From positions 448,001 to 512,000 of the forward strand of contig JBMNHS010000001.1 of NCBI GenBank assembly GCA_050950505.1: a stretch of 64,000 bases of DNA, written 5' to 3'. This DNA is from Candidatus Methanomethylophilaceae archaeon (GTDB lineage: Archaea; Thermoplasmatota; Thermoplasmata; Methanomassiliicoccales; Methanomethylophilaceae). Numbering within the stretch: the stretch's first letter is position 1; each line of letters starts with the position of its first letter. This document shows positions 32,104-51,670 of the stretch, one piece after another. A program made the position numbers and the translations under genes. The notes below the pieces were generated by a model. The model did no database searches, had not been told where the DNA came from, and worked only from the letters and a program-made list of their open reading frames with translations.

Positions 32104-32422
32104 ACGCTTATCTTCACCATATATAAGTCCACAATACTAAATCGTTTTTCTCGACGGATTGAAAGAGATTCAGAACAATTCTTCAATCGTTTGCATTCAA
32201 GTTTAGCATATACGAGCCAAGGTAAATTAAGTTTGTAATATTTTATTATAATTAACTGCATGAAATGGAGATAGTTTTCAGATAACGTATAGTCTCTTTA
32301 CAAAAACTGATCAAAAAGGCTGTCATTCATTGGCTCATATCTTTTAAGTTTGCAGTTCTCGGCGGTTTCCGTTTGGCGGAAAATAATAAAATGTCTCGTG
32401 GAAGGAGAAGATTATACTAAAA

Positions 32423-34238: not shown

Positions 34239-34500
34239 ACTAAAACATCGAAACTTAACGGAAACTTCCGTTTGCAAAAGCACATATTTCAGCGAAAGTC
34301 AGAGCGATGACAGTCATTAGTTCAAACTTGGATTTTATTATTGTTTCTTGCAGAATTGCAAGTGTGAATTTAGGATCAAGTGTCAAAATATTAGTTTTCA
34401 AGTGATGAGGTGACTCGGTTTAATATAATCATGGACGACAACAAACTCATATTTTTCCTCATAATCAATTGATATCTTATTCAGTGTATAATCTATATTC

Positions 34501-36264
34501 TTACTCTAATTTTAGATATTTCATCCAGAAGTCTACATTTGTAATCTTGTCCTTATTTTTTCTATATTCTGATTTTACAATATCGTACTCTTTCCATACT
34601 GATATTAAAACTGTAAACGTCCGTTTCATTTCTTTAAGAGCACACCTTATATTCTTCGAAGTAACAAAGGCCCTTTTGTTACTGTAATCATAGTTTAGAA
34701 CCTTATGTGCACGGTTGAATTTATGATTGGGCGGGTTATAAACATTCACTGTAACATTTTTATTGGTAGGTAATATTAAATTTATAAACCAGGGGTATGG
34801 GCGAACTTTATTTTGTAAGTCTGCACCTAAATCAGAATATGAAAATTCCATTTTTAAGTTTGAAACTGGTTCTAATTTATAACCCAAAGCCATTATATTT
34901 TTGTGCAGCATCTCCCCATCTTCAGACTTTAACCAGACATATCCCCTAAGAAAGTCCTCTACGCCTTTTGTTAGCAGCTTTGCATTCTTGTATCGGTACC
35001 GAGTCATTTCTGAAGACCATTGTTTAAGATAGTCTCTTATCAGTTGTTTTTTTGTATATCCAATGTTATGAAGAGAATTCAAAATCAGCTTATTTCTTAA
35101 TATGTAATAATATGTGGATGAAGAATATTTATTTTCAAAAGGCTCATGCCAAACACATATTCCATTCAGTAGAATTAAATTACCTATATTGCGCAATCCG
35201 AATTCAATATCGTCTCCTCTGAAAAATATAGGTATCGGCAATCCATTTTCGATTATCTTTTTGAGAGGGATGGCACAGTACCACCAAGCGTTATAATCAA
35301 CAGATTCTTCAATTTCATTAAAAAGACAAGCCTCACAAGACGTCAGGTTCAAACCATTTTTTAATGAATGTACGCTCGCTCCATTCCATTTTGCGCCAGA
35401 TTCTATTTGGATATTTTGTTCATCTAAACTAAGCATGGCGCCTCCTATGAACGCATCCTGGTATTCTCTTTTTAGAATTGAAAGTATTGCGTATGTACGA
35501 TATATGGATTCAACATCGAATAAAATGTCGTCATCCATCAGTATGACATGAGTAGTCTTGTTATCACACTGAGCCTCGATCATACATCTGGCAAAACCCC
35601 CCGCACCACCGGTATTCTTATTCTTTATCAATTTAATGTAAGCAGGGTCAAATTCAGAGTCTAGCGTATTCCCATTGTCTGAGATGTATATCCTCATCTT
35701 ATCTTTTGGGAGTGGCGTATTCCCATTATCTAATACGTTTACGATCCGATTCACATTCTCAATGACGTATCGTTCTCTCTTGTAGGTGCATATACATAGT
35801 CCAAGATCAACGTGATTTATTTTACTATGGCATATTTCAGATGAATAATAGCCATCCAATATCTGAGAATAATCTTCGAGCGATATAATTTCAAAAGTTA
35901 ATATTCCAGACGATTTATCAGGATACTCAATTGTAATTTCGTCCTCAGTAACGGATCCAAAAATTATTTCATCCAATACGACGGTCTTGCATTTTTTATT
36001 AATGAGACGCTCTTTATGAATTAATCTTATGCTGAATTTACCTTTTAGGCGGAGAGTTAAGGATACGTTAGTTATTTCTGTATATTTTTTCCATTTATCG
36101 ATGTAGAAGCCATTAAAATACGTATCAAATAGTGCTACTTCCTCTGAATTTAAAGTTATGCGGCTATCATTAAAAGAGTAACACTTATCATCATTTATTC
36201 TGAAATATAAATCAAATATTGAACACACATTGGTTTTTGGAAATATTATATTCTGAAGAATCAC
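34501..36264 (-). CDS. GlfT2-like GT2 galactofuranosyltransferase
   Basis: FDTYFN.F N-terminal domain; ICTYKRE, NTGGAGGF, LMDDD, AWWYC, GDDIEFGLR, VWH motifs. Confidence 0.85.
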   Translation of the reverse strand: MILQNIIFPKTNVCSIFDLYFRINDDKCYSFNDSRITLNSEEVALFDTYFNGFYIDKWKKYTEITNVSLTLRLKGKFSIRLIHKERLINKKCKTVVLDEIIFGSVTEDEITIEYPDKSSGILTFEIISLEDYSQILDGYYSSEICHSKINHVDLGLCICTYKRERYVIENVNRIVNVLDNGNTPLPKDKMRIYISDNGNTLDSEFDPAYIKLIKNKNTGGAGGFARCMIEAQCDNKTTHVILMDDDILFDVESIYRTYAILSILKREYQDAFIGGAMLSLDEQNIQIESGAKWNGASVHSLKNGLNLTSCEACLFNEIEESVDYNAWWYCAIPLKKIIENGLPIPIFFRGDDIEFGLRNIGNLILLNGICVWHEPFENKYSSSTYYYILRNKLILNSLHNIGYTKKQLIRDYLKQWSSEMTRYRYKNAKLLTKGVEDFLRGYVWLKSEDGEMLHKNIMALGYKLEPVSNLKMEFSYSDLGADLQNKVRPYPWFINLILPTNKNVTVNVYNPPNHKFNRAHKVLNYDYSNKRAFVTSKNIRCALKEMKRTFTVLISVWKEYDIVKSEYRKNKDKITNVDFWMKYLKLE

Positions 36265-36594
36265 AGTTTGCCCTCAACCTTTAATTACAGGTCTAGATAC
36301 TATTTAATTTATTATATATTCCGACCAGATATTGCGGATGTAAGTATAGATATACTTCTGGTAAGTTTTTGACACATATTTTTGTACCACTTCCTATGAT
36401 TCTTCAACTGATAGGCTGAGATTTGCCCTCAAGAATAATCGTATTTCAAAAACAACTACCTAAGTGTGTTTCCAAATTGTACATGTTTAGGTGCCGGTAA
36501 TAAATATAGAAATTTCTGAAAACTTAAACGTTCGATGTTTGGCATACACCTATGATAGTATATATGATAGATATGGTATGGATGATGTTAATCT

Positions 36595-38130
36595 ATGGAA
36601 CTTTATAAGGTATCCACGAAGTACAAACTATGCGGATCCGACAATTTGTATTTGCGTATAAGATCGGGGGCAATCGAAAGGTTGGAAGATGTGTATATTT
36701 TACAACCGGATACCGAAATATCCACCGATACATACTTCAATCTTTTTTCAAGTTCCAAATACGGCACCCATACATCTGCTAAAAAAATAACGATAATGAC
36801 AGTTGTATCGGGTGACATAGAAGTAGAGTTACGGTATTTTACGAAACACACGGATAAACGCGTTGATTCCAGAAAAATAACATCAGACGCGGAAGCGGAA
36901 GTGTCTTTTACTTTCGATATAAGTGATTTAGACGACTCCGAGCCTGTGTGCCATTATATTCTTTACAGATCAATAAAAGCGTCTAAAATCTATTCATTCG
37001 GATCGTATATGGCGGATTCAGTGCCGAACCTTGTGAATCTCGGGGTAGTGATATGCACATTCAGGAGAGAGTTGCGGGCAATGGAGACGCTGGACAGGAT
37101 AGCGGAAATAATGCTTTCCGAGGAATATGTGACCCCGGAATTAACCGTATATCTCGTCGATAACGGGAAAACTATAGAGAATCAAGACATACGGTATGAC
37201 TTTGTCAAGTTGATACCCAATGAAAATACAGGAGGATCCGGTGGCTATACCAGGGGGATGTTGGAAGCCCGCAATGAACAAAAAACACATATTTTGTTGA
37301 TGGATGACGATGTTTACATAGATCCGAACGTAATATACAAAACGGTCAATTTCATATCTATATTGAATGAAGACCGCGCCGATTCATTCATTCTGGGCGG
37401 GATGTTATTGCCGGAATCCCCCACTGTTCAGTATGAAGCCGGCGCGGAATGGTTACCCGATTTCAGAGGCAGGAAATCAATGTTGGATCTTTCCGAAAAG
37501 GAATCTTTACTGCTTAATGATAAACGAGAACCTGCACAATACGGCGGATGGTGGTATCAATGTATGCCGGTATCCGCGACAGATAAACTACCACTTCCAT
37601 TTTTTATAAAAATGGACGATGTTTTATTCGGCATAATGCGCATGAACAATCATGTTGTAATGAATGGAATCGGAATCTGGCATGATAGTTTTGAAAGCAA
37701 AATAAATCCTGTAGTGGATTTTTATTTCTTACGAAGAAACGGTTTGATTTTGGATTCCATATTCAACAGGCGTAACGGATTCAGAATAGGTGCATATTAC
37801 ATGCGCATCTTGCTCCACTGTATCAAAAAACAAGGAAACAAGGAATATTTTTTTACTAAAATGGCCATTGAAGATTTTTTGAAAGGTCCGGACATGTTCT
37901 CAACAGTCAAAGGAGAAGACATCCTATCTATACCCGTTACGAACTATTTTGAACATCCCGACTCTAAAAATCCAACTGCCGAATCACTATTAAAAAACAA
38001 CACACTCAAGGAAATTCACAATTCGATCCGAATCTGCCTTCGTCTCTTAACAGAATGGAACTCCGTAAGTGAAAATTATAAAAAAAATATACATTACTAT
38101 TCTTCTGAAGAATTTTGGAGAAATATATGA
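36595..38130 (+). CDS. GlfT2-like GT2 galactofuranosyltransferase, paralog
   Basis: TDTYFNLFS, ICTFRRE, NTGGSGGY, LMDDD, GGWWYQC, IKMDD, IWHD motifs. Confidence 0.83.
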   Translation: MELYKVSTKYKLCGSDNLYLRIRSGAIERLEDVYILQPDTEISTDTYFNLFSSSKYGTHTSAKKITIMTVVSGDIEVELRYFTKHTDKRVDSRKITSDAEAEVSFTFDISDLDDSEPVCHYILYRSIKASKIYSFGSYMADSVPNLVNLGVVICTFRRELRAMETLDRIAEIMLSEEYVTPELTVYLVDNGKTIENQDIRYDFVKLIPNENTGGSGGYTRGMLEARNEQKTHILLMDDDVYIDPNVIYKTVNFISILNEDRADSFILGGMLLPESPTVQYEAGAEWLPDFRGRKSMLDLSEKESLLLNDKREPAQYGGWWYQCMPVSATDKLPLPFFIKMDDVLFGIMRMNNHVVMNGIGIWHDSFESKINPVVDFYFLRRNGLILDSIFNRRNGFRIGAYYMRILLHCIKKQGNKEYFFTKMAIEDFLKGPDMFSTVKGEDILSIPVTNYFEHPDSKNPTAESLLKNNTLKEIHNSIRICLRLLTEWNSVSENYKKNIHYYSSEEFWRNI

Positions 38131-38262
38131 ATCACCCGCTTCAGATATGCAAATTATCCGTATCGTGTAATTGATGCACGATTACAGAGTTTTTGTATGG
38201 GCGTGCAGTAAAGCATAAATGTATATGTCATTTCAATAATACTTCAGGCAGGACGCAGGTAT

Positions 38263-39057
38263 ATGGCATTTAGGGATGCAGTCAAAGGAAAACTGAGCGA
38301 ACTATACAGTTTCAGGCATATGTATTACTCTCTGGTACAAAGGAGCCTATTCGGAAAGTATAGGAATTCCGCATTAGGATTTCTTTGGAATTTTTTAACC
38401 CCCGCAATCTCTATTTTACTGTTCTATATTGTTTTTGAAAATTTTATGGGTCAGAATATTGACAACTACTGGGCTTACTTGTGCGTAGGAATGTTTCCGT
38501 TTCAATTTATGAATCAAAACCTTATCGGAGGAGCATCCAACATAACGTCGAATGGAGGCATGGTCAAGAAGATATACTTCCCAAGAGAAATTTTGTCATT
38601 GTCCCAAGTCACATACACATTCATCATTTTTCTGATATCCTATGGAATCGTCATATCATTAATGATCGCTACAGGCATATTTCCAACGGGGGGTTTGCTC
38701 GCTCTGCCCATTATAATTCTGACTATGTTCTTATTTTCACTAGGAACAATAATGCTGACATCTTCAATTTCAGTATATTCCCGAGATTTCGAATATCTTA
38801 TAACCGCTTTTTCAAGAGTGTTGTTCTGGGTAACGCCTATATTCTATCTGGCAGAAGCGAGGGCAGGGATATTATACACGATAATATGGTTCAACCCTCT
38901 GACGTATTTTGTAGAGGGATTTCATCACGCGGTCTGTTGGGGCACTATGCCCAGTACGGGACTGTTAATGGGTTGCGTATTGATTTCCATTGTTGTTTTC
39001 GTGATAGGAGCGTTAGTATTTTTTAAGCTCAAAGATGGATTCGCGGAGAGGATCTGA
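38263..39057 (+). CDS. wzm: Polysaccharide ABC-2 exporter permease (Wzm-like), copy 2
   Basis: Colinear, same-length paralog of 19925-20719. Confidence 0.93.
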   Translation: MAFRDAVKGKLSELYSFRHMYYSLVQRSLFGKYRNSALGFLWNFLTPAISILLFYIVFENFMGQNIDNYWAYLCVGMFPFQFMNQNLIGGASNITSNGGMVKKIYFPREILSLSQVTYTFIIFLISYGIVISLMIATGIFPTGGLLALPIIILTMFLFSLGTIMLTSSISVYSRDFEYLITAFSRVLFWVTPIFYLAEARAGILYTIIWFNPLTYFVEGFHHAVCWGTMPSTGLLMGCVLISIVVFVIGALVFFKLKDGFAERI

Positions 39058-41685
39058 GTGTCCAAATGTGCAGTACGCGTCATAAATGTGAATAAGTCAT
39101 TCACCACCATGGCAGAAACAGACGACGGCGGTCTTTTAAAGAGAAGGAAAAAGATTACAAAACACATCCTCAAAGATGTTAATTTAGACATCAAAAAAGG
39201 AGAGGTTTTCGGTATAATAGGAAGAAACGGTTCCGGAAAAAGCACCACTCTGAACATGATTTCTAAAATTATGAAACCCGATTCCGGAACAATAGAAATT
39301 AACGGTAAGGTTGCAAGCATCTTAGAATTGGGCATGGGATTTCATAACGATTTGACCGGAAGAGAAAATATCTACATTAAAGGAACAATGTACGGACTTA
39401 CCAGAAAACAATTGGATGCGAGAATGGATAACATTGTGGACTATGCCGACATTGGAGAATATATCGATCTTCCCATGCGGGTGTATTCTTCAGGAATGCG
39501 TAGCAGAGTCGCCTTCTCAATCATGATAAGTGTCGACGCGGACATAATAATTTTGGATGAAGTGTTGGCCACCGGCGATTTGGCATTCAATAAGAAATCC
39601 CGTACACATTTTTCTAACCTAAAACTTGAAGGCAAGACCATAATTCTTGTGGCACATTCCATGTCAACGATGAGGGAGATGTGCGACAGGGTGGCATGGT
39701 TGGACAACGGAGTAATAAGAGAAGTTGGCCCCCCCAATGTAGTCTGTGGCCATTATGAGACAGAGCTCGCGGAGTCTATAGATATATTAACGGAGCTCGC
39801 GGAATCGGGAGTTCCCGCATCTCAAAACACTCTCGGTTGTATGTATCGCGACGGCCACAGAGTAGAGAAAGATATGGGGAAAGCCAAGTATTGGTTCGAA
39901 GAAGCGGCTAAAAGAAATTATGATATTGCCAAGGTAAATCTTGCCGATATAATTGTAACCGATGAAGCATTGGAAAACATAGACAAGGCGATGGACCTCT
40001 ATATGAGTGCCGCAGGAAGAGGCAATCGGGAAGCGCGTACTAAATTATCCCGCTTGCTTACAAACGAGTCGCGGGACATAAGTATGGAAGTCGTAAATGA
40101 TTTCAAGGAACTGTTGTCTTCCGCGAATCCTCAGTTATATTATGAATATGCGGATTTAATATTGAAAACTGCCTGGAACAATGAGGGTCAAAGAGAAGCA
40201 TTCCTCTGGTTTGAGAAAGCCTCGGATTATGGTCACGCAACAGCCATGTATCAGATTGCATTAATGTATCGAGACGGGACGGGTATTTCTCAGAGCGATT
40301 CAGAATATATCAACTGGCTAAAGAAAGCCGCAAGATGCGGACACGCTTATTCTCAATTAATGTTAGGTAACGCGTATCGAGACGGAATCAAGGTAGATCA
40401 TGATATAGAAGAGGCCTTCATTTGGTACAAAATGGCGGCGGACAATAACAATCTTGATGCCATTTATCAGGTGGCTATGATGTATCGCAAAGGTACGGGA
40501 ATCCATGAAAGCAGAGAGGAATCAGATTACTGGCTCAAACTTTATGCACAGCACGGATTAAATCGTCAAATAAATATTCTCGCCGATTCATATGCCAATA
40601 ACAAGAATGGAGTTTTTGATATTGAGAAAGGAAAAAAATGGTACGCCGTGAACGCTGAGCATGGTTACGGTGATTCAAAATATCGTTTGGGGAATATATT
40701 GAACAGCAGTGAGGACATGGATGAAAGATTGATGGCTTCATCGATTCTCGATGAAGCTTCAAAAAATGAAAATTTCCAATCCACGGTTCAACTTTTCAAT
40801 CTTCATGCACTGGGGGAGGCTGAGAAATCCAACCTTGAAGATACGATATCGCGGTTAGATGAATTAATCGAAAAAGGAAATATGTGGTCAGCCAATACAG
40901 TAGGAAATATATTTGCCGATGCTAAAATTCTAGAATTTGACGGAACAAAGTCAATCGAATATCTAGAAAAAGCTGCTGAATCCAACATAGTTCCCGCCGT
41001 ATACAGGCTGGGGATAATATACCGTGACGGCATTTTAGTCGAGGCTGATTATTCCGAATCCCTCAAATGGTTCAAAAAGGGAGCACTTTTAAAACATGTA
41101 CCCTCTGCAATATCTATAGTGAATATGTACCTTTCAGGTGTAGTAAATCAGGCTGCCCTGGATTATGCGTTGAAAGAAATTGAAAAGATATGTCGGACAG
41201 GCAATACCCATGCCATACGAACATTGGGCGAATACTATCTGAGTGGCAAAGTCGTAGAGCAGAATTTTCAAAAAGCGATTTATTGGTATTCAGTAGGTTC
41301 AAACTTGGGAGATATCGAGTCACGATATCAACTCGGTTTGATTTATCGTGACGGCAAGGGCGTTGAGAAGAGTTTCGAGGAAGCATTAAAATGGTTTTCT
41401 TTATCCGCAAAACAAGGTGATTTCCGATCAATCATAGCCATAATACGAATGTATGGAAGCAATCATGTCGATAAAAACTCATTCGATTCAGCATTTTCAC
41501 AATTAATAGGTATTGCTAAGGGAGGCCACAGGGGCGCTATGCGTGATCTTGGAAATATTTTATACGAGGGTAAGTTGGTGTCTAAAGATTTGAATAAATC
41601 TAAAATATGGTTTGAAAGAGCAGCTATGGCAGGATGCAATTACTCCCGGGAGAAACTGGAATCCCTTAAAAAATTAGAAGAATAA
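39058..41685 (+). CDS. wzt: Wzt-type ABC ATPase fused to SEL1-like repeats, copy 2
   Basis: GRNGSGKST, YSSGM, ILDEVLATGD; SEL1 units; alignable by eye with copy 1 over its full length. Confidence 0.92.
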   Translation: MSKCAVRVINVNKSFTTMAETDDGGLLKRRKKITKHILKDVNLDIKKGEVFGIIGRNGSGKSTTLNMISKIMKPDSGTIEINGKVASILELGMGFHNDLTGRENIYIKGTMYGLTRKQLDARMDNIVDYADIGEYIDLPMRVYSSGMRSRVAFSIMISVDADIIILDEVLATGDLAFNKKSRTHFSNLKLEGKTIILVAHSMSTMREMCDRVAWLDNGVIREVGPPNVVCGHYETELAESIDILTELAESGVPASQNTLGCMYRDGHRVEKDMGKAKYWFEEAAKRNYDIAKVNLADIIVTDEALENIDKAMDLYMSAAGRGNREARTKLSRLLTNESRDISMEVVNDFKELLSSANPQLYYEYADLILKTAWNNEGQREAFLWFEKASDYGHATAMYQIALMYRDGTGISQSDSEYINWLKKAARCGHAYSQLMLGNAYRDGIKVDHDIEEAFIWYKMAADNNNLDAIYQVAMMYRKGTGIHESREESDYWLKLYAQHGLNRQINILADSYANNKNGVFDIEKGKKWYAVNAEHGYGDSKYRLGNILNSSEDMDERLMASSILDEASKNENFQSTVQLFNLHALGEAEKSNLEDTISRLDELIEKGNMWSANTVGNIFADAKILEFDGTKSIEYLEKAAESNIVPAVYRLGIIYRDGILVEADYSESLKWFKKGALLKHVPSAISIVNMYLSGVVNQAALDYALKEIEKICRTGNTHAIRTLGEYYLSGKVVEQNFQKAIYWYSVGSNLGDIESRYQLGLIYRDGKGVEKSFEEALKWFSLSAKQGDFRSIIAIIRMYGSNHVDKNSFDSAFSQLIGIAKGGHRGAMRDLGNILYEGKLVSKDLNKSKIWFERAAMAGCNYSREKLESLKKLEE

Positions 41686-41729
41686 TCATGATTATCCATT
41701 TAAACTCGATAAATTTCACAATTTAAAAG

Positions 41730-43424
41730 TCATTTAATGCGACTCATGATACTCTCGTATCCGTCTTTTACTTTATTCAATATGAATCGAGGGACGTCCG
41801 ACAGAGAAAAGAATAATTTATGATATTCCGAATGGGTCGGATCGCTCGTCCAATTCAATGTATCGAAATATTCCTGTTCTTCCTTGGACATAAATCTGGA
41901 GAGATTCAGAATCCATCTGTTTACGGAATCATGGTTTATCACCGGTATGAAATCTCCGAATACGGATTTCACGGTTTCAAAATAATCCGTCATTCCCGCG
42001 GTCATTTTAGGCATGACATCGGTTCTGAACCATTCGTTTGAGTTTGAGTCGTATACAGGGTATCCGCTGTCATCTATGCTGACTATCGGTTTTTCATCGG
42101 AGGACATCAAAAATTCAGGAACGTCGATGGCGGTCAATTCGAAAAATGACCGATAGTTATCGCAAAATCCCTTTGCATTGTCGTCAGACTTGTTTCGCAA
42201 CAAGACATAGTACAGCCCTTTGACACTTTTGTTCGTAACCTCATCAATAAGCTTTTGCGATGAAAATTTTCTGGTCGAGGCATCCACCACGTATATCGAA
42301 TTCCCATGTTTTGTGTAGCAATCGATGTATGACTTGTATTTGGTCAATTCTTTTTCCATCAACCTTTCAAACAGTTCCGGATTTTCAATTAAAATTTCAT
42401 GAGGGGTTCCCGACAGTTCCCTCACTTCCGGATGGTCTGAAAAATAATCGATGATGTCTTCTTCGTATCCCGGATAATCTCTTCCGTTGATTCCAAAAAG
42501 TATATTGAATCTCCTCGCGGCATAAATGTAATGATTTTCAATTTTTCCAAATAATATGTTATAAGCTTTTTGAGCATTATACCCGTCCCGGGCTATGAAG
42601 AATAAGACACTGTCTTTTTCGGCATTTTCGTTTATGAACGATGCAAACGCAGTATTGACGGGACCCCCGTAGCGGTATCCGAAGTTATACCAGAAATTAT
42701 CATTTTTCTTATGAGTGTTGTATCGGAACAAAGCATCGATTCCGACAATTACCGATCGTTCGTAATTTCTTCTTAAGCGGTAATAGACGCGCTCTTTCTT
42801 ATGCGAACGCAAGTACCTCTCAGTTATGTTCTCGTATTTTATGACGTTTATACCAATATTTTTTGGGATTCTTATATCAGATTTATCGTTGTCGCCTATA
42901 TGTAACAAATCGCAGGGTTCAATTCCAAGATCTTTAAGAATAACTTTGAACAGCCCCCCGGTTCCTTTACTAGTCCGGTGTTCGCCGGACACAAACAATT
43001 TGTGATAACCGTCGAACCCTTTGAGTTTCAGCACATTATCGATAAATTTCGAAGGGAGGTACATATCCGATGCCAATATCACGGTTTTATTGAGAGATAT
43101 AACACAATCGAAAACACTTTTCATTTCGACATTTTGTTGCAGAACCTGTTTTTCATATTTCATTTCCAGATCGATATATGATTTATATTCGGATTCGATT
43201 TCTTCATAAATTTCATATAAAACAATCTCTGGTTGTTTTCTTCTTCTTGCGTTCCTTTCGGCAGATATTCTCGCCTTCGCAAACCCCGGGATTTTTTCCG
43301 TCGCTTCCATATGTCGAAATAAATCAGTGGGCCGTGCATACGGTCGCAACAACAACGTATCAAAAATATCGAACGATATGTAATCGAATGCCTATACCGA
43401 TTCCATCATTTCTGACACAGTCAT
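41730..43424 (-). CDS. HAD phosphatase + PRT-like domain protein (candidate glycan ribofuranosyltransferase); in-frame TAG at codon 11
   Basis: ATG 43424: MTVSEMMESV*AFDYISFDIFDTLLLRPY; the track ORF (from 43355) lacks HAD motif I. Also ASDMYLP, HIGDN..SD, FFIARDGY, VVD....FSSQ. Confidence 0.8.
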
Positions 43425-43429
43425 CAAAA

Positions 43430-44359
43430 TCACTCTGTGAGAACTTCCCGCACAGTCTCTCTCACGGCCTGTTCGGAATCAAATTTAAATTTCCAACCGT
43501 TGGCTTCCGCCTTGGAAATGTCGTATGAAAATGTGGAGACGTCTCCTTTCCAACCTATGGAGCCGCCCGTATATTTGTATTGAACATCTTTCAGTCCCAT
43601 ACCCTCACACACTATGTCGGCTATTCTGTTAACATTGATAAAGGAATTCGTCGAAATGTTGTATACGTCCATACCGCCCCCGATATTTTGGGAGAAGGAC
43701 ATGATACCTTCTGCAAGATCGGTAACGTGGACGTACTGTTTCTTTTGAAGGCCGTCGCCCAATATTTCCAACTCTTCCGGATTTCTCTTCAATTTGTTGA
43801 TGAAGTCGAAAATAACCCCATGTGTAAGTCTGGAACCCACGACGTTGGGGAATCTGAATATGAGCGAATTCAATCCATACATATGAGTATAGGAAGAAAT
43901 CACGGCTTCGGAAGCAAGTTTGTAGGCGCCGTAATGGGATATTGGCTTCAAGTTGCCCTCATCTTCCTTAAGGTCGATACCGGGCTTATCGCCGTATATC
44001 GCCGAAGTGGAAGCGAAAAACAGATTTCCGATCTCGTTTTTAACTATGGCATCAAGAACATTCTTGGTGGTCATGAATGTATTTTTGAAATCGACTTCGG
44101 AATTTTCACTTCCTGCACGTATATCCGAATTTGCCGCAAGATGGAATACAAAATCGCATCCCTTCGATATCTCAATCAGTTCATCGATATTGTTTATATC
44201 CATTTTTTGAAATTCGAATGACTCATTGTCCGTAAGATGATCTATATTTCCAGTATCATCCGAGAAATCAATACTCACTATGTCCCAACCGTCTTCAATC
44301 AACAAATCTTCAAGATGGCTGGCTATGAACCCCGCTCCGCCCGTTACTAACGCCTTCAT
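43430..44359 (-). CDS. NAD-dependent nucleotide-sugar epimerase/dehydratase
   Basis: LVTGGAGFIASH, FASTSAIYG, YGAYK, FRFPNVVG motifs. Confidence 0.92.
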   Translation of the reverse strand: MKALVTGGAGFIASHLEDLLIEDGWDIVSIDFSDDTGNIDHLTDNESFEFQKMDINNIDELIEISKGCDFVFHLAANSDIRAGSENSEVDFKNTFMTTKNVLDAIVKNEIGNLFFASTSAIYGDKPGIDLKEDEGNLKPISHYGAYKLASEAVISSYTHMYGLNSLIFRFPNVVGSRLTHGVIFDFINKLKRNPEELEILGDGLQKKQYVHVTDLAEGIMSFSQNIGGGMDVYNISTNSFINVNRIADIVCEGMGLKDVQYKYTGGSIGWKGDVSTFSYDISKAEANGWKFKFDSEQAVRETVREVLTE

Positions 44360-45348
44360 ATTTTTCGCACTCTTGTATCAAACAATCTGTTATCTCTGTA
44401 ATACACGAACTTCAAATACATATTAAGAGCCAGGTGGTATGTCGACGGAGAAAGGCTTACCCACAGATGGTCCCATGACAGGGGATCTCTCATATGTTTG
44501 TTCCTCATTTCCTTGCATTCGTCGCTTTTTATGTATTTGATAAAATGGTTTCTGTCCATATGTCCGGCTGAACGGACCCTCATGATTGCCGAGCGCCTTG
44601 AGAATATTTCACCGAACCATGATTTTCTGAAATGTTCCTCAAGTTCGCCGTACACCCGTACTTCCCAGTTGCCCACGTCGTTGGGTCTTGAAGAGCAAAT
44701 CGAAAGGGGATTCTGATAATAGAGGTACATCGGCCTGTCGTAATACACAAGAGTATCGCACATTTCCATTGCACGGTATGTATGATTCACATCTTCGGCA
44801 TATCCTCCGTGATGGAAACGCAAATCATTATCCATCAAAAAATCCCGTCTGTGAACCATGGACCACGCCGTAACAGGAATCTGCTCGAGACTCCGTTCAA
44901 TCAGAGCTTCTTTGTTGCTCAGAACTCTGACTTTAAAGTTGCCCTTCGGCTCCGGAGTGTCAATGTCAAATGAGCGAATGAAGTTACACTGCACAATTTC
45001 AGCTTTGTATTTGTCTGCCAATTCAACCATTGTCGAGACAAACTCAGGATACGGACGATCATCTGCGTCGAGAAACCATACATATTTCCCTGAGGAATTT
45101 TCAAGACCGATGTTCCGGGCTTCGCCCAACCTCCCGTCTCCCGTCTGGATTATGGATTTACAGTTCAGTCCTTCTGAAAATCGGGAAATCAATTCCAAGG
45201 TGTCATCCGTGGTCTTGCCGTCAACAACAAAAACAATCTCAAAATCATCAAATTTTTGTTCTCTCAGATATCCGATTATACGCTCTACGTTATCGGATTC
45301 GTTATAAGCAGGTATAACCACACTCAGACAGACCACATCAATCCCCAT
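44356..45348 (-). CDS. GT2 glycosyltransferase
   Basis: LSVVIPAYN, ARNIGL, YVWFLDADD, AED motifs; start approximate. Confidence 0.9.
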   Translation of the reverse strand: MGIDVVCLSVVIPAYNESDNVERIIGYLREQKFDDFEIVFVVDGKTTDDTLELISRFSEGLNCKSIIQTGDGRLGEARNIGLENSSGKYVWFLDADDRPYPEFVSTMVELADKYKAEIVQCNFIRSFDIDTPEPKGNFKVRVLSNKEALIERSLEQIPVTAWSMVHRRDFLMDNDLRFHHGGYAEDVNHTYRAMEMCDTLVYYDRPMYLYYQNPLSICSSRPNDVGNWEVRVYGELEEHFRKSWFGEIFSRRSAIMRVRSAGHMDRNHFIKYIKSDECKEMRNKHMRDPLSWDHLWVSLSPSTYHLALNMYLKFVYYRDNRLFDTRVRKI

Positions 45349-45466
45349 CCTGTTCTGGTATGTAGATGCAGTCATTATTAAATCTATTTCCATATTCATG
45401 GTTGAACAAGTGGAATCTGATTTTTCGGTCAAGAGCGAAATCAGTCAAGACGCATGAGACAATATT

Positions 45467-46516
45467 ATGAAAACAGACGTGGTAATACTCAGACGCTAGC
45501 TCAATAAAACAAACAAAGTCACAGGAGTCAGCGTGTACACAGATATGATAAAAACACTTCTCGATTCTAACAAATTGACATCGGAAGACGTGTGTTTTAA
45601 ACTGTCCTCCGACGAAGGATATGCAAAATGCGTAACTCAGGGACTGATTATTCCGATACGGGATTTGAAAAAACAAAAGGGAAGGATATATCACGCAACC
45701 GACGAACTGTGTTGTATAGGTTATCCATTTTTCAAGGGTAAGAAAATAACCACATTCCATCATATTCCCAAGAAAACAGTAAAAGACGGTTATTCTCCCC
45801 TGTTGTACAGAGTATGGAAGGCCGCTGCGAAAAACGCCATAAAGTATTCAGATGCGATTATCTCCGTATCTGAGCAAACCAAAGACGAACTTGTTGAATT
45901 CATGGGAGCGGATCCGAATAAGATTTTTGTCTTGGAACACCGAGCCGATTCCTTTTTCCAAGATTTGGGCAGACCCAGAAAAAAATTGATAGGATATGTG
46001 GGCACACTGATTGAACGAAAAAATGTGGAATCGGGTGTATTGGCTTTCAAATCATTCATCGAAATGCAGGACGCCGGGGATTACAATCTGGTTATTTGCG
46101 GAGAAGGGCCTCTTAAGGAGGATCTCAATAAACTTGCGGATTCTTTGGATATATCGGACAGAGTGTCTTTTATTTCCAACATTTCTAAAACTGAATTAAG
46201 AGATTTGTACAACGACATGGCCGTGTTCATCAATCCCTCTTTCCACGAGGGGCTGGGGCTTACCGCAATGGAAGCTCAGGCATGCGGAACACCGGTGGTT
46301 TACTTCAGAGACGCTGAAATCCCGCCGGAAGTATCCAAAGGATACGTTCCTTCCGATGACGTAGAGGATTTTGCAAAGAACATCCATAGGCTGGTGACCG
46401 ATACCGATTTCAGAAACAAGTTCAAGATTGTGCCAAAATCGGGATTGAGCGATGAAGAGTATGCCAAAAAATTGTTTGAAATCTATTCTGTTGTTTCCGG
46501 TGAAGAATTTCCTTGA
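45467..46516 (+). CDS. GT4 (GT-B) glycosyltransferase; in-frame TAG at codon 11
   Basis: ATG 45467: MKTDVVILRR*LNKTNKVTGVSVYTDMI, in frame with the track ORF from 45533; YVGTLIERKN and EGLGLTAMEAQACGTPV motifs. Confidence 0.85.
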
Positions 46517-46596
46517 TATCAGTTCTCGGTATTTTATGAAAAAACAGGCATATTTCAAAACGAAGTGTATTAAAAGATAATATACTGAAAATCGGA

Positions 46597-47592
46597 TTGA
46601 GTCTTATGATTATCACTCGTACCCCTCTCCGAATAAGTTTTTCGGGAGGAGGCAGCGATCTTCCGTCTTTTTACAGAAAACATGGAGGATGCACTGTAAG
46701 CACTACGATTGACAAATACATTTACCTGACACTTCAGGATTCATTTACCCCCGGAATATCAACAATAAAGTATTCCAAAGTTGAAAGTTTTGAAAATGTC
46801 AATGAAATAAACCATCCGATTTTCAGAGAATGTATGCTTAGTTTTGATGCGGATTCATTGGAAATGTCAAGTATGGCGGACATACCCGCCGGAACGGGAT
46901 TGGGCTCTTCGAGTTCATTTACGGTAGGATTGATTAACCTTATGAGCCGGTATAAAAATTTAGATTATGACAAGGAACTACTGGCTCAACTTGCATGTGA
47001 GTTGGAGATAAACCGATTAGGTGAACCCATAGGGAAACAGGACCAGTATGCTGCCGCATACGGAGGATTGAACTATTACAGATTCAACCAGGACGATACG
47101 GTCGATGTAATTCCGGTCAATCTATCCGTTAAAAATATGGAAAAGCTGAATGAAAATTTGATTCTGATGTACACGGGAATCACTCGAAGCGCTTCCGAGA
47201 TACTTGTAAAGCAGGACTCGAACATTGAAAAGGGCACGGGCGCCGATAAAAATCTGTTGGAGATGTGCGATCTCACAAACAACCTGTTCAAAGATCTGGA
47301 AAGGGGAAACATAAGTGCTATGGGAGACATTCTGGACAAAGGATGGAATCTGAAGAAGACTTTGGCCGAAGGAATATCTTCCGACGGAATAAACCGTGCA
47401 TACAGAGCGGCAATGGATGCGGGGGCGCAAGGCGGAAAACTTTTGGGAGCGGGGGGAGGGGGCTTCATGTTGTTTTATGCAGACAAAGAATTTCACGGAG
47501 AAATTGAAAAGAGTCTTCCGGGATACAGAAGAACGCCATTCAGATTTGATGACACAGGTTCGATAATGATATACAACGGCAATACTCAATGA
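46597..47592 (+). CDS. hddA: GHMP kinase, D-glycero-D-manno-heptose-7-phosphate kinase (HddA-like)
   Basis: TPLRISFSGGGSD, PAGTGLGSSS, GKQDQYAAAYGG, GGKLLGAGGGGF motifs. Confidence 0.88.
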   Translation: MSLMIITRTPLRISFSGGGSDLPSFYRKHGGCTVSTTIDKYIYLTLQDSFTPGISTIKYSKVESFENVNEINHPIFRECMLSFDADSLEMSSMADIPAGTGLGSSSSFTVGLINLMSRYKNLDYDKELLAQLACELEINRLGEPIGKQDQYAAAYGGLNYYRFNQDDTVDVIPVNLSVKNMEKLNENLILMYTGITRSASEILVKQDSNIEKGTGADKNLLEMCDLTNNLFKDLERGNISAMGDILDKGWNLKKTLAEGISSDGINRAYRAAMDAGAQGGKLLGAGGGGFMLFYADKEFHGEIEKSLPGYRRTPFRFDDTGSIMIYNGNTQ

Positions 47593-47601
47593 CGGAACAG
47601 G

Positions 47602-48189
47602 GTGATGACAATGGATTTTTCTCAGGATTTAAAAAATTATTTTGACAAAATGAAAACAGTAATCGACAGTATAGATTCCGAACAGGTTCAATCCGCAATG
47701 GATGCAATCATGGATGCTTATCGCAGAAATTCCACCGTATTTATTTTCGGTAATGGCGGCAGCGCGTCCACGGCATCCCATATTGTTTGTGATTTCAACA
47801 AAGGAATTTCCATGGGACTCGATGATAAGTTCAATTTTGTATGTCTGAATGACAACATTGCCACAATGATGGCGATATCCAACGATATCAGTTATGACAA
47901 AGTTTTCTCCATCCAATTGGAAGGAAGATTGAAGAAAGGAGATCTGGTGTTCGGAATATCCGGCAGCGGCAATTCCAAAAATGTGATAAATGCAGTGGAA
48001 TACGCAAAATCACGGGGTAACGAAGCAGTCTCCCTCACAGGATACGATGGCGGAAAATTAAATGAATTATCGGATTATCCCATACATGTGCCTGTCAACG
48101 ACATGCAAAAGGCCGAGGATTCACACATGATGATTCTGCACGCTATGGCTCAAGTCATAGCGAAGAATCTTGGAAATCCGATGTGTTGA
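47602..48189 (+). CDS. gmhA: Phosphoheptose isomerase (SIS domain)
   Basis: FGNGGSASTASH, AISND, ISGSGNSKNV, LTGYDGG, ED.H motifs. Confidence 0.9.
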   Translation: MMTMDFSQDLKNYFDKMKTVIDSIDSEQVQSAMDAIMDAYRRNSTVFIFGNGGSASTASHIVCDFNKGISMGLDDKFNFVCLNDNIATMMAISNDISYDKVFSIQLEGRLKKGDLVFGISGSGNSKNVINAVEYAKSRGNEAVSLTGYDGGKLNELSDYPIHVPVNDMQKAEDSHMMILHAMAQVIAKNLGNPMC

Positions 48190-48196
48190 ATAACAA

Positions 48197-48466
48197 TCAG
48201 ATGTTTGTCATCGAAACACATTCGACGTTTTCAACGTCGTCAATGGAACGAAGACCGTCTTCTATTTTGGATCCTATGTTTTCGTCAGAATCGTCGATAA
48301 GCAATCCGACGGAAACCTTTTTGAGGCCGAACGCAACCGGTTCTATTGAGGATTCGGTTATTTCAACACCTTCGGGAAGAACGTCCTTCACGGCGCTCTG
48401 TATGGCCTCGACGTCCGCTTCGGTGCCGTTGGGGAATATCTCGTACCCTGCAACAATCTGTGCCAT
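48197..48466 (-). CDS. ef1b: Translation elongation factor 1-beta
   Basis: EPVAFGLK motif; 89 aa. Confidence 0.95.
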   Translation of the reverse strand: MAQIVAGYEIFPNGTEADVEAIQSAVKDVLPEGVEITESSIEPVAFGLKKVSVGLLIDDSDENIGSKIEDGLRSIDDVENVECVSMTNI

Positions 48467-48475
48467 GCCTTTACC

Positions 48476-48640
48476 TCACGGTCCGACGAATCCGCATTTC
48501 TTGCATTCGTACTCAATGCCCTGATCGCGGCACTGAGCGCATCTTCCGACTTCATCGTCCCCGCATTTGGGGCATTTGAAGAATGTATTGCCTCTTCCGG
48601 TGAGTCTTACGCCGCAGGAAGAGCATATTTTATCTGCCAT
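48476..48640 (-). CDS. Zinc-ribbon protein, DUF1610/HVO_2753 family, 54 aa (not in ORF track)
   Basis: MADKICSSCG...FKCPKCG....RCAQCR....YECKKCGFVGP*: four CxxC; conserved archaeal position upstream of EF-1beta. Confidence 0.92.
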   Translation of the reverse strand: MADKICSSCGVRLTGRGNTFFKCPKCGDDEVGRCAQCRDQGIEYECKKCGFVGP

Positions 48641-48722
48641 GCGGGTGCGATACTTTTCTTTATATTTAAACCGAGCACAAGAACAACGGAAAGCCTATCA
48701 ACTAATCCGCGGTATCGATGTT

Positions 48723-49589
48723 ATGAACATCAGTTCCGATTGTGTCCCGTGTTTGCTGAAAAGAGTTTTGTTCCAGGCACGCTTGGCAGACAATGATTCG
48801 GAATTCAACGCATTGTCGGCAGCATTATCCACATTCTCCGAAGAATACGAAGAAGGAAGAAACTCGGCCGAGGTTGCGACGGCAGTGCATACCGTCGCTT
48901 ACAAAGCCATGGGCATCTCCGATCCGTACAAGGGATTGAAAATCATCGCAGACGAAGTAGCGGGAAATCTCTTGGATAAAGCGCAGGAGTATGTCGAATC
49001 ATCCGATAACCGTCTGAGGGCGGCAATGACCGTGGCGATAATCGGCAACATAATGGATTTCGGACAAACAACATCGATAGATCACCCGGATCTCTTCACG
49101 GATCTTTTCGAAGAATTGTTGGAACAGGGCATAGATTCCGACGATACCGAAATTGTCGAAGAGTGTCTGAGAAAACCGGGCGACATATTGTATGTTTTTG
49201 ACAACAGCGGAGAGAGCCAGCTTGATAAAATATTGATCAGAGAACTGAAGTCCAGAGGCAAACACGTCATAGGCGTGGTCAGAGGTGCTCCGATACTCAA
49301 CGACGTAACCATGGAGGATGCATCGCGGTCGGGTTTGGACAAAGAACTTGACGATATAATCAGTACTGAAAAATTCGCAATCGGGATTCCCATGAAAATT
49401 GAAAAAGACTTATCCGAAGCCTTATCGAAAACATCTTTCATAATTGCGAAAGGAATGGCAAATTTCGAATCCATGGAAGGAAGGGATTTCGGAGTGCCGG
49501 TGGCATTCCTCTTAAGGGCGAAATGTGTGCCGGTGGCAAACGCGTTGGGTGTGGATGTCGGTACGAATGTCGCCCGCGTCGCCGTATGA
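48723..49589 (+). CDS. DUF89/ARMT1-like damage-control phosphatase
   Basis: C.PC, DPY...K, GN.MDFG, DNSGE..LD, LND, IAKGMANFE, KC motifs. Confidence 0.9.
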   Translation: MNISSDCVPCLLKRVLFQARLADNDSEFNALSAALSTFSEEYEEGRNSAEVATAVHTVAYKAMGISDPYKGLKIIADEVAGNLLDKAQEYVESSDNRLRAAMTVAIIGNIMDFGQTTSIDHPDLFTDLFEELLEQGIDSDDTEIVEECLRKPGDILYVFDNSGESQLDKILIRELKSRGKHVIGVVRGAPILNDVTMEDASRSGLDKELDDIISTEKFAIGIPMKIEKDLSEALSKTSFIIAKGMANFESMEGRDFGVPVAFLLRAKCVPVANALGVDVGTNVARVAV

Positions 49590-49628
49590 ATGCAATTAAT
49601 ATCAAAAGTACATTCAGGATTGATACCC

Positions 49629-50666
49629 ATGTCAGACAAAGTAACTCAAGCCGTCATTATGGTCGGAGGCAAAGGTACGAGGTTGAGGCCGCTCACGGAG
49701 ACCTGCCCAAAACCTCTGCTTCCGGTACTTGACAAACCCTGTCTCATGTATCTCATTGAGAATCTGGCATCATCGGGGATCGATGAAATAATATTGGCTT
49801 GCGGTTACAGATCCGCTCAACTCGTTGAAACCATAGGTGACGGTTCCGAACTGGGCATAAAAATAACCTATTCTTTTGAAGACGAGCCTCTCGGCACTGC
49901 GGGGGCAATAAAGAAAGTCGAAAGCAAATTGGACGAAACCTTCGTCGCAATGAACGGGGACGTGTTTTCCCACATAGATGTATCCGAAGCGGTCAAAGAA
50001 CATTTCGCTTCGGGTGCGACAGTGACAATTTCTCTGACGGAAGTCAAAAATCCCTGTGAATACGGAATAGCCAGAGTGGAAGATGACGGAAGAATATCCG
50101 AATTCAGAGAAAAACCGAAGCCTGAGGAAGTATTCTCAAATCTCATAAACGCAGGCACATACGTGGTTCAGAAAGAAGTTTTGAAATACGTTCCCGATGA
50201 GGGTCAATACGACTTCTCCAAAGAACTTGTCCCGGATCTTATGAAAAAGGGATATCGGGTACAGGGTTACAGATACACCGGACCTTGGTTGGACGTCGGC
50301 CGTCCTTCCGATCTTATCGGCGCCAATAAAATGGCTGCCGACCGAAATCCTATGATTCCGGGCATGAAAAAGGAATTGGCCGGCTCATCCGTCGAAGGAC
50401 CGTTTTACCTTGGTGACGGATCCGTCATGACGGGCACACTATCCAGTTCTTCATTCATTCATAAAAACTGCACCGTGGAAGATTCCGATTTGTCGAACTC
50501 ACTGGTAATGGAAGGATGCACCGTAAAATCTTCCGGACTGCATAACAGCATCCTGGGCAAAGGATGTGAAATAATGCCGGGTTCCGTCATTGAAGACTCG
50601 GTGCTCGGTGACGGTGAAAAAGTACCAGAAAACACTAAAATCGTAAGAAATGAGGTGATTCATTGA
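49629..50666 (+). CDS. Sugar-phosphate nucleotidyltransferase (mannose-1-P guanylyltransferase/HddC-like) with left-handed beta-helix tail
   Basis: GGKGTRLRPLT...PKPL, PLGTAG, NGDV, EKP, INAGTY, WLDVG motifs. Confidence 0.9.
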   Translation: MSDKVTQAVIMVGGKGTRLRPLTETCPKPLLPVLDKPCLMYLIENLASSGIDEIILACGYRSAQLVETIGDGSELGIKITYSFEDEPLGTAGAIKKVESKLDETFVAMNGDVFSHIDVSEAVKEHFASGATVTISLTEVKNPCEYGIARVEDDGRISEFREKPKPEEVFSNLINAGTYVVQKEVLKYVPDEGQYDFSKELVPDLMKKGYRVQGYRYTGPWLDVGRPSDLIGANKMAADRNPMIPGMKKELAGSSVEGPFYLGDGSVMTGTLSSSSFIHKNCTVEDSDLSNSLVMEGCTVKSSGLHNSILGKGCEIMPGSVIEDSVLGDGEKVPENTKIVRNEVIH

Positions 50667-51670
50667 AATATATCCGTTCGAGGGCTCCTCTGAGAATCGG
50701 GTTGGCCGGCGGAGGCACGGACGTAGATCCGTACGCGTCCGAAAAAGGCGGAGCCGTGTTCAACACGACGATAAACAAGTACGCATACTGTACTATAATT
50801 CCCAACGGCACCAAGAACATATCCGTGGAATCCGCGAATTACGGAATGTATGAAACATCTCTCGACGGCGGACCTCTGCCTCTCGACGGAAACATGGATT
50901 TGGTAAAGGCGGTGCTTAACCATTTTGAAATCCGGGACGGGTTCAGAATGCTTCTTCAGTCCGATTCGCCCCCGGGTTCGGGATTGGGAGGGTCTTCCAC
51001 GGTCATAGTGGCCGCCATTGCCGCAGTTGCGGAATGGACGGGAGAAAAGCTGACAAGCAGCGAATTGGCAAATCTGGCATACAAGCTTGAAAGGGAAGAC
51101 ATCGGACTCAAAGGCGGCAAACAGGACCAGTACGCCGCGGTGTTCGGCGGATTCAATCTGATGAAGTTCAGGAACGAAGGCGTTGATGTGAACAGAATCA
51201 AAATCAAAGAACATACGCTGAACGAACTGCAATACCGTTCCGTATTGTGCTATACCGGAAAGACCCGCGAATCCGCGAACATCATCGATTCCCAGATGAA
51301 AAGGTTTGAAAAGGGAGACAACGAAGAAGCCCTGGATCTGACAAAGGAAATGGCAATGGACATGGCGATGGCTTTGGAAAAAGGCGACATTGAAGAAACG
51401 GCCCGTTTATTGGATCTCGGTTGGGATTACAAAAAACAATTTTCCGATAAAATAACAAATCCGGAAATTGACAAACTGTACAATGCCGCCAAAGATTCCG
51501 GGGCCATCGGAGGCAAGGTTTCCGGTGCCGGAGGCGGCGGATTCATGTTTTTCATATGCGATTATGACAAAAAGTTCGTGGTATCCGAGAAATTGACGAA
51601 ACTCGGTGCTAAAGTAACGGATTTTATGTTTGAGCCCGAAGGTGTCGTCACATGGAGGTCGGAAGAATGA
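50663..51670 (+). CDS. hddA: GHMP kinase, HddA-like, second copy
   Basis: RAPLRIGLAGGGTD, PPGSGLGGSS, GKQDQYAA, GGKVSGAGGGGF motifs. Confidence 0.9.
   Translation: MKYIRSRAPLRIGLAGGGTDVDPYASEKGGAVFNTTINKYAYCTIIPNGTKNISVESANYGMYETSLDGGPLPLDGNMDLVKAVLNHFEIRDGFRMLLQSDSPPGSGLGGSSTVIVAAIAAVAEWTGEKLTSSELANLAYKLEREDIGLKGGKQDQYAAVFGGFNLMKFRNEGVDVNRIKIKEHTLNELQYRSVLCYTGKTRESANIIDSQMKRFEKGDNEEALDLTKEMAMDMAMALEKGDIEETARLLDLGWDYKKQFSDKITNPEIDKLYNAAKDSGAIGGKVSGAGGGGFMFFICDYDKKFVVSEKLTKLGAKVTDFMFEPEGVVTWRSEE

Follow-up and report, generated by a model that had tools for sequence, protein, structure and literature searches.

We describe a gene of a Candidatus Methanomethylophilaceae archaeon that carries an in-frame TAG as its eleventh codon. 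It lies in a stretch of 64,000 nucleotides of GenBank assembly GCA_050950505.1 (contig JBMNHS010000001.1, positions 448,001 to 512,000, equivalent to C1:448001-512000 of the source genome, G000), which is called the window here. The gene is predicted to encode a two-domain ribofuranosyltransferase, in which a CrpP-like HAD phosphatase is followed by a CriT-like transferase dependent on phosphoribosyl pyrophosphate (PRPP). The source genome holds a complete pyrrolysine (Pyl) cassette and has nearly eliminated TAG as a terminator, and the probable history of the codon is a neutral change from GAG to TAG at a variable position, with the TAG now decoded as pyrrolysine. Most likely, the gene is one more case of an already described type of recoding that public annotation has missed.

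The gene, its start, and the in-frame TAG

The gene occupies 41730..43424 on the minus strand and comprises 564 codons followed by a TGA stop (41730-41732), with codon 11 the only one recoded in its translation (P0001). It opens with an ATG at 43422..43424, 5 nt past the TGA of an epimerase gene, and GAGTGA, a weak Shine-Dalgarno-like sequence, is found at -11 to -6 relative to this ATG. The minus strand reads ATG ACT GTG TCA GAA ATG ATG GAA TCG GTA TAG GCA TTC GAT TAC ATA through codon 16 and continues TCG TTC GAT ATT TTT GAT ACG TTG. The TAG, a probable pyrrolysine codon that is present in the assembly and in independent contigs, lies at 43392..43394 and is followed by 553 open codons. HAD motif I, FDIFDT, spans codons 18-23 (43356..43373), with Asp19 as the predicted nucleophile.

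The codons from the TAG to FDIFDT include no ATG, GTG, or TTG. The first canonical start 3′ of the TAG is the TTG of codon 24 (43353..43355), already beyond motif I, and a standard open reading frame (ORF) finder begins the ORF there, at 43355. Public gene calls start later still, at the ATG of codon 39 (Met39, 43308..43310), which gives a form without motif I. A product begun at TTG24 or Met39 would lack both Asp19 and the first Rossmann strand, so phosphatase activity would require read-through of the TAG. All of this bears out a first-pass annotation of the window, which had reported an amber at codon 11 of a minus-strand ORF, a start 5 nt after the epimerase stop, some 550 uninterrupted codons after the TAG, no canonical start from the TAG to motif I, and an active enzyme dependent on read-through. 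We also looked for RNA structure 3′ of the TAG, and a hairpin resembling a pyrrolysine insertion sequence (PYLIS) was rejected there (z +0.48, with 129 of 200 shuffles folding at least as well).

The TAG in independent sequence data

The first-pass annotation had proposed that the TAG be confirmed in raw data, and we found it in every sample looked at, from at least five sources. Logan contigs span the site with 0 differences in all four of the runs compared, each from a separate study: a landfill (X8, record 25), manure (X13, record 10), and two bioreactors (X10, record 4, and X14, record 19). The stretch of 2671 bases around the TAG is present in runs from 17 studies, and across it the four runs show a single nucleotide difference (44029 C>T, in X10); they represent essentially one strain of a nearly clonal population. 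The TAG is also present in L042, a metagenome contig with 99.98% identity over 4530 bases. Given the four independent runs and this contig, the TAG appears fixed.

Pyrrolysine genes and TAG usage in the source genome

The source genome comprises 1.33 Mb in two contigs, with 48.8% G+C, and is 99.6% complete. The pylS, pylB, pylC, and pylD genes lie at C1:4851-8552, all above the curated NCBIfam cut-offs: 267 bits for the catalytic C-terminal domain of PylS (cut-off 178), 438 for PylB (348), 315 for PylC (248), and 217 for PylD (150). An N-terminal domain of PylS was not found. By eye and by folding, we identified pylT as a 71-nt cloverleaf at C1:8696-8766, whose anticodon loop is CUCUAGA (CUA anticodon), whose D arm is short, and whose anticodon stem is bulged; 21 nt separate it from pylS downstream. 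It was called neither by ARAGORN, which found 41 tRNAs, nor by Rfam at the pylS locus (E up to 1), and a 5′ motif of Methanosarcina-type pylT had no match in the search for this gene; automated annotation of the genome would report no pylT. The cassette, C1:4851-8766, is complete. The first-pass annotation had given as established that Methanomassiliicoccales encode pyrrolysine at UAG and pointed to pylTSBCD as the genes to look for, and all five are present.

TAG is nearly eliminated as a terminator in this genome and is mostly internal. Our counts come from a crude, uncurated ORF-based gene call of 1227 ORFs covering 90% of the genome, in which the stop is TGA for 938 ORFs, TAA for 275, and TAG for 14. 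TAG is the nearest upstream in-frame stop of 132 of the 1227, so it is not generally rare. For eight of the 14 ORFs ending in TAG, a further coding piece follows in the same frame, and in seven of these eight, read-through yields one contiguous Pfam match across it. Three of the seven are methyltransferases, MtmB, Dimeth_Pyl (MtbB), and MTTB. The other four are an AAA_14/DUF4143 protein with two internal TAGs (L046, C1:223352-224713), a KAP_NTPase (L047, C1:255191-257419), a UbiA-family protein, and a PLD-ResIII-helicase-DUF3427 protein (ResIII/Helicase_C/DUF3427) whose TAG falls between ResIII and Helicase_C (L050, C1:1138060-1140903). In the eighth, a 4Fe-4S protein (L049, C1:1017040-1017732), the Pfam match is confined to the part after the TAG. 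Read-through restores full length in L046, L047, L049, and L050.

The remaining six of the 14 comprise three weak ORFs, two genes that read-through would extend by 2 and 17 codons, and pylB, leaving only about three confident genes that end in TAG. Read-through of pylB (L052, C1:6786-7835) adds 29 codons and overlaps pylC by 89 nt out of frame. This is one of two cases in which the overlap with a neighboring ORF exceeds 60 nt, the other being a weak ORF of contig 2 (68 nt, opposite strand). As a separate observation, the first canonical start of an 850-residue ORF (L051, C1:898940-901660) is preceded, about 30 codons upstream, by an in-frame TAG, with HD-nuclease-like sequence, Cas3-like by eye, on both sides of that TAG. 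Annotation may here conceal a second N-terminal TAG.

A TAG kept across species in a UbiA-family gene

The UbiA-family gene with an internal TAG offers a view of this codon over a longer time. It resembles digeranylgeranylglyceryl phosphate synthase, is one of two UbiA genes in the source genome, and was found in 166 of the 174 family genomes. In the source genome (L048, C1:626555-627397) and in its nearest sister species, G007 (L055, C30:4700-5542; 82% identity), the TAG occupies a common alignment column, and both genes are full-length with every motif intact. G080 has Gln at this column and a TAG elsewhere in the gene (L056, C1:226302-227111), and G183 has two TAGs. That a core lipid gene has kept its TAG through a speciation event indicates that this lineage reads TAG through, and from these sequences we take it that the lineage of the source genome translates TAG. 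Among genes outside the methyltransferases, this one is a rare instance of a Pyl position retained between species.

A predicted two-domain ribofuranosyltransferase

Family databases say little about the TAG-bearing gene. The HAD match from Pfam is sub-threshold (22.1 bits, cut-off 26.4), NCBIfam offers no more than generic HAD-IA, and the family identity comes solely from a fold search and from a search of a profile (34 homologs, alignment A1) against the PDB. The profile matched Bcs3, the capsule polymerase of Haemophilus influenzae b, at E 3.1e-39 (chain 385-851) and a polysaccharide ribofuranosyl transferase of Thermobacillus composti (7SHG) at E 6.5e-22. The AlphaFold model has a mean predicted local distance difference test score (pLDDT) of 90 and a predicted template-modeling (TM) score of 0.90. 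Used as a Foldseek query, it returned 7SHG (E 1.2e-18, 609 columns) and the Bcs3 structures 8A0M and 8A0C (E about 1e-17, about 600 columns) at the top, with the matches ranked below them covering the HAD domain only. In Bcs3, residues 374-591 form CrpP, an HAD-like phosphatase whose nucleophile, D386, is described as the sole conserved Asp of motif I (PMC10299916). Residues 592-1036 make up CriT, in which D680 and E818 are conserved. CriT transfers ribofuranose-5-phosphate with PRPP as the donor, and CrpP then removes the 5-phosphate, according to the same account (PMC10299916). By profile and fold, the archaeal protein would combine a CrpP/PRP-like HAD phosphatase domain (about residues 15-200, 42825..43382, minus strand) with a CriT/gPRT-like phosphoribosyl-transferase domain (about residues 201-564, 41733..42824, minus strand). 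The label "HAD/PRT" glycan enzyme given in the first pass therefore holds up, with two solved ribofuranosyltransferases as the matching structures.

The residues expected of such an enzyme are in place. SFDIFDTLL aligns with TFDIFDTLI of Bcs3, with Asp19 as the first Asp and Phe at position +2, as in Bcs3. D19, D22, and T23 are invariant in the 34 sequences, as are the residues of HAD motifs II-IV (S119, K153, G177-D178, and D183). In the transferase domain, R279-D280 pairs with the RD of "SRDG" in Bcs3 and D381 with the Glu of "FVEF", all invariant in A1; mapping these to D680, E818, and R679 of Bcs3 assumes a one-residue offset in chain index. In total, all 38 columns that are invariant across A1 are kept in P0001.

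Similarity to the solved enzymes (8A0C, 8A0M, and 9H50 for Bcs3, and 7SHG) thus extends to FDIFDT(L), as in Bcs3, and to the RD and acidic residues of CriT. Identity to them is only 17-18%, and the whole-chain TM score of 0.44-0.50 means that the orientation of the domains differs. The predicted protein has neither a CroT nor an SH3b module, and its host is archaeal. None of the solved ribofuranosyltransferases has a recoded codon.

Orthologs and the probable ancestral N-terminus

Proteins of relatives carry the source name Methanomethylophilaceae. Matches to P0001 were found in 18 of 61 relatives (8 of the 15 within the same genus) and in 47 of the 174 family genomes. The nearest ortholog in the latter set is 54% identical, and close matches align from residue 1-3 to 563-564 without a stop. 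Among the 53 matches listed for the family genomes, a TAG occurs only in the source genome, G136, and G146, and the TAG of G136 is at a different, C-terminal position. The G136 locus (L040, G136:C116:10134-11828) is a 34%-identical paralog from another genus, with its in-frame TAG at about residue 505.

We surveyed the N-terminus at 30 loci and dropped four whose DIYDT-type or DAFDT-type motif was missed by the search pattern, as well as the window itself, leaving 25 orthologous loci. An ATG stands exactly 17 codons before the motif Phe (F18) in 17 of the 25, and a GTG stands there in two more. Five of residues 1-10, MTVSEMMESV, are identical to those of the nearest ortholog, MDISEMYEKI, a level equal to that over the whole protein (54%). 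Homology is unambiguous on the downstream side of the TAG; on the upstream side it is convincing by eye, over ten residues too short for a database E-value. The conserved position of the ATG and the likeness of these residues point to the ATG at 43424 as the ancestral start and to the ten codons before the TAG as coding, and speak against a chance stop ahead of a gene. In the AlphaFold model, residues 3-10 form a helix and residues 15-19 the first strand (pLDDT 93 for residues 1-10 and 97 for 11-20), and residue 11 falls in the short connection joining the two, eight positions N-terminal of the nucleophile.

Alignment of the orthologs at codon 11, a comparison that the first-pass annotation had suggested, finds an acidic residue in 17 of the 25 loci (Glu in 12 and Asp in five). 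Asn occurs in two, and Arg, Gly, Thr, Gln, Met, and Leu in one each. None of these loci has a TAG at this codon, nor any other stop in the N-terminus. As judged from the alignment, the TAG replaces a variable, mostly acidic residue, and GAG to TAG would be a one-step route to it. The earlier idea that Pyl probably stands in for Lys or Gln is not supported by this column, which has one Gln and no Lys.

Public gene calls and a related lineage

The public form of the protein has 526 residues and begins at Met39 (P0002, five members); the copy from the source contig is called at only 360 residues (P0123). Three strain variants, P0124, P0125, and P0126, with 4, 3, and 1 amino acid differences, are likewise called from Met39 and open throughout, so that the species cluster has four protein haplotypes, all called from this codon and all open. 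A lineage with 75% identity is represented by P0003 (514 residues, on a 125-kb contig) and P0122 (529 residues, beginning at the equivalent of Met39, on a 25.8-kb contig). Both are called N-terminally truncated, as expected if an early in-frame stop is shared.

HAD motifs II-IV are intact in this lineage. Its identity to P0001 is 0.73 in the HAD domain and 0.77 in the C-terminal part (ratio 0.95), so the HAD domain is no more diverged. The corresponding ratios for intact pairs at comparable divergence are 0.78-1.06, and the median over all 66 intact pairs is 1.10. If the interruption is indeed shared, the phosphatase domain has been constrained with it in place, which would argue strongly for functional read-through. 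Searches for DNA of this lineage gave only the window's own species in the metagenome scan (L042) and nothing above 54% in the 174 family genomes. In further lineages, P0035 begins within motif I, and P0019 is called from Met39 beside a full-length sibling, P0127. Across all these truncated calls, the starts fall at the equivalent of Met39, at residue 54, or within motif I. Early interruptions may be recurrent in the lineages of P0003, P0122, P0035, and P0019, or these starts may equally be choices of the gene caller.

Relation to known cases of pyrrolysine recoding

Thg1, the tRNA-His guanylyltransferase of Methanosarcina acetivorans, reportedly acquired its Pyl by neutral evolution (Heinemann et al. 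2009). The resemblance to the gene described here lies in a Pyl at a non-conserved, dispensable position of an enzyme of housekeeping type, reached by drift in a background that suppresses TAG; for Thg1, the incorporation of Pyl and its dispensability were reportedly demonstrated by experiment.

In sequence features, the gene corresponds to the "Category 1" internal-TAG genes and the genome to "Group C / Genetic Code 34", as these are outlined by Kivenson et al. (2024): a pyl cassette, scarce TAG stops, and a non-methyltransferase gene with a singleton TAG. It differs from their Category 1 in that the TAG is 10 codons from the start, a distance too short for methods that, as described there, use more than 30% identity on both sides or hidden Markov models. 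Here, gene callers do not split the gene but move its start downstream. For Candidatus Methanomethylophilus alvus, an earlier report describes 16 non-methyltransferase genes with in-frame TAGs and 1.6% TAG stops (Borrel 2014, PMC4153887). Its list includes a DPM-synthase-like family 2 glycosyltransferase (GT2), a GT29, and a digeranylgeranylglyceryl phosphate synthase; the source genome, too, has a TAG in its UbiA-family gene. The genus and the protein differ, a BLAST match was required on both sides of the TAG, and the list contains no ribofuranosyltransferase (PMC4153887). By mass spectrometry, Kivenson et al. confirmed Pyl in 12 of 15 expressed proteins predicted to contain it in M. alvi, which belongs to the same family, Methanomethylophilaceae (bioRxiv 10.1101/2024.09.30.615893). 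The novelty implied in the first pass, a Pyl-containing glycan enzyme outside the methyltransferases, does not stand: such proteins were predicted in 2014 and confirmed by proteomics in M. alvi.

A parallel is offered by RdmS of M. acetivorans: the protein is non-essential, its gene has an internal UAG, and its archaeal host decodes Pyl. On the blots described by Shalvarjian et al. (2025, PMC12626013), its UAG yields both terminated and read-through forms. The RdmS genome has about 5% or more TAG stops, whereas the source genome, at about 1% by the crude gene call, is nearer the state of M. alvi.

Origin of the TAG and alternative explanations

We propose that translation starts at the ATG at 43424 and that the UAG of codon 11 would be decoded by Pyl-tRNA(CUA); the complete pyl cassette and the near elimination of TAG as a terminator, a state like "Genetic Code 34", argue for Pyl at this codon. 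The TAG would have come in one step from an ancestral Glu codon, GAG to TAG, and would persist because read-through makes it near-neutral at a variable surface position between the short N-terminal helix and the first strand. The Pyl is probably a passenger residue, not a catalytic one. On the evidence above, we regard this neutral origin with decoding as pyrrolysine as the probable explanation.

Several points weigh against this explanation. The codon-11 TAG is a singleton among the 174 family genomes, G146 aside. The near-zero diversity among the four runs means that purifying selection since the mutation is not directly measurable. That the 75%-identical lineage shares the TAG is deduced only from its truncated gene calls, and we infer both the insertion of Pyl at codon 11 and its efficiency from sequence. 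The TAG that ends pylB hints that TAG may still terminate sometimes, and by analogy with RdmS, read-through at codon 11 may be incomplete. Termination there costs only a decapeptide.

Some of these observations would also suit a recent nonsense mutation, in which UAG terminates and the gene is dead or yields only a truncated protein from TTG24 or Met39. Such a protein, without the phosphatase nucleophile, might still transfer ribose-5-phosphate and leave the 5-phosphate on the product. The singleton state of the TAG and the lack of diversity would allow a very recent event, the public calls are of 526 residues from Met39 and of 360 from the source contig, and UAG is ambiguous in M. acetivorans. 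However, a TAG should have little effect in a genome where a core UbiA gene keeps one and only about three confident genes end in it. Moreover, the 553 codons remain open with every invariant family residue intact, the HAD domain has no relaxed constraint relative to a lineage that is likewise called truncated, and the TAG is in every sample from at least five sources. We think a dead or truncated gene unlikely, and the same applies to a truncated transferase that still acts on ribose-5-phosphate.

Alternatively, the early UAG could be a selected expression valve, by which the amount of full-length enzyme tracks the supply of Pyl-tRNA. The amber would then be an old, retained, and possibly recurrent Pyl-dependent gate, shared with the 75%-identical lineage and controlling ribofuranosylation. 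An ambiguous codon is cheapest at just such a position, where only a decapeptide is lost, and on long contigs, N-terminally truncated calls are seen in two or three other lineages (P0003/P0122, P0035, and P0019). The pyl genes of M. acetivorans are also reported to be regulated by substrate (PMC12626013). Against a valve, gene-caller choices or other lesions may account for those truncations, all 25 other loci compared lack an N-terminal stop, no RNA structure accompanies the TAG (z +0.48), and singleton Pyl sites fit neutral mutation in the account of Kivenson et al. Both the valve and the ancient gate strike us as improbable. If true, the gate would link envelope chemistry and the modification of surface glycans to methylamine metabolism.

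Translation might instead begin at a non-canonical start 3′ of the TAG, such as the ATA of codon 16 or the ATT of codon 20, with the TAG in the 5′ leader. The genome offers a candidate precedent in its RFC large-subunit gene (C1:1097142-1097232), which lacks any ATG, GTG, or TTG from an in-frame TAG to the conserved WASKYRP motif; a GGAGGT followed by an in-frame CTG suggests a start at CTG or another non-canonical codon. Neither the ATA nor the ATT of the ribofuranosyltransferase gene is preceded by a Shine-Dalgarno-like motif. Initiation at either codon would cost the protein its N-terminal helix, and initiation at codon 20 its nucleophile as well. In 17 of 25 loci an ATG keeps its distance of 17 codons from the motif, and the residues it introduces look homologous by eye and form a confident helix in the model; we hold a non-canonical start to be very improbable. 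Finally, a sequencing or assembly error at what is truly a sense codon is excluded as the origin of the TAG, its probability being negligible when four of four independently sequenced runs and a metagenome contig are identical at the site.

The surrounding glycan island

The gene belongs to a glycan island (window positions 30000-47000) with 36-42% G+C, against 48.8% for the genome. Immediately upstream on the minus strand lies the NAD-dependent epimerase/dehydratase gene (43430..44359; Pfam Epimerase, E 1.8e-47), whose start is overlapped by 4 nt by a family 2 glycosyltransferase gene (44356..45432, minus strand), giving an operon-like run. The island also encodes LicD (LicD-Sel1), a GlfT2-like protein, GT2 and GT4 glycosyltransferases, an ABC-2 permease, an ABC ATPase with Sel1 repeats, GHMP kinases, SIS isomerases, and a nucleotidyltransferase. 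A pathway of the ABC-transporter type is encoded by the ABC-2 permease (38263-39057) and the ABC ATPase fused to Sel1 repeats (39058-41685), and a set resembling that for nucleoside diphosphate-heptose (SIS, GHMP kinase, HAD, and nucleotidyltransferase) spans 46597-52698.

Significance

For annotation, the case calls for a correction: the public calls lose the nucleophile, or the whole phosphatase domain, of a predicted ribofuranosyltransferase. A TAG within the first codons of a gene escapes methods that need homology on both sides, and Pyl proteomes may thus be undercounted at the N-terminus. What is known of the mechanism of pyrrolysine decoding is left unchanged by this gene. With the TAG that two species share in a core lipid-synthesis gene, the case adds to the evidence that a genus of Methanomethylophilaceae from digesters and landfills treats TAG as a sense codon, and it would extend the PRPP-dependent ribofuranosyltransferases, as predicted here, to archaeal glycan islands.

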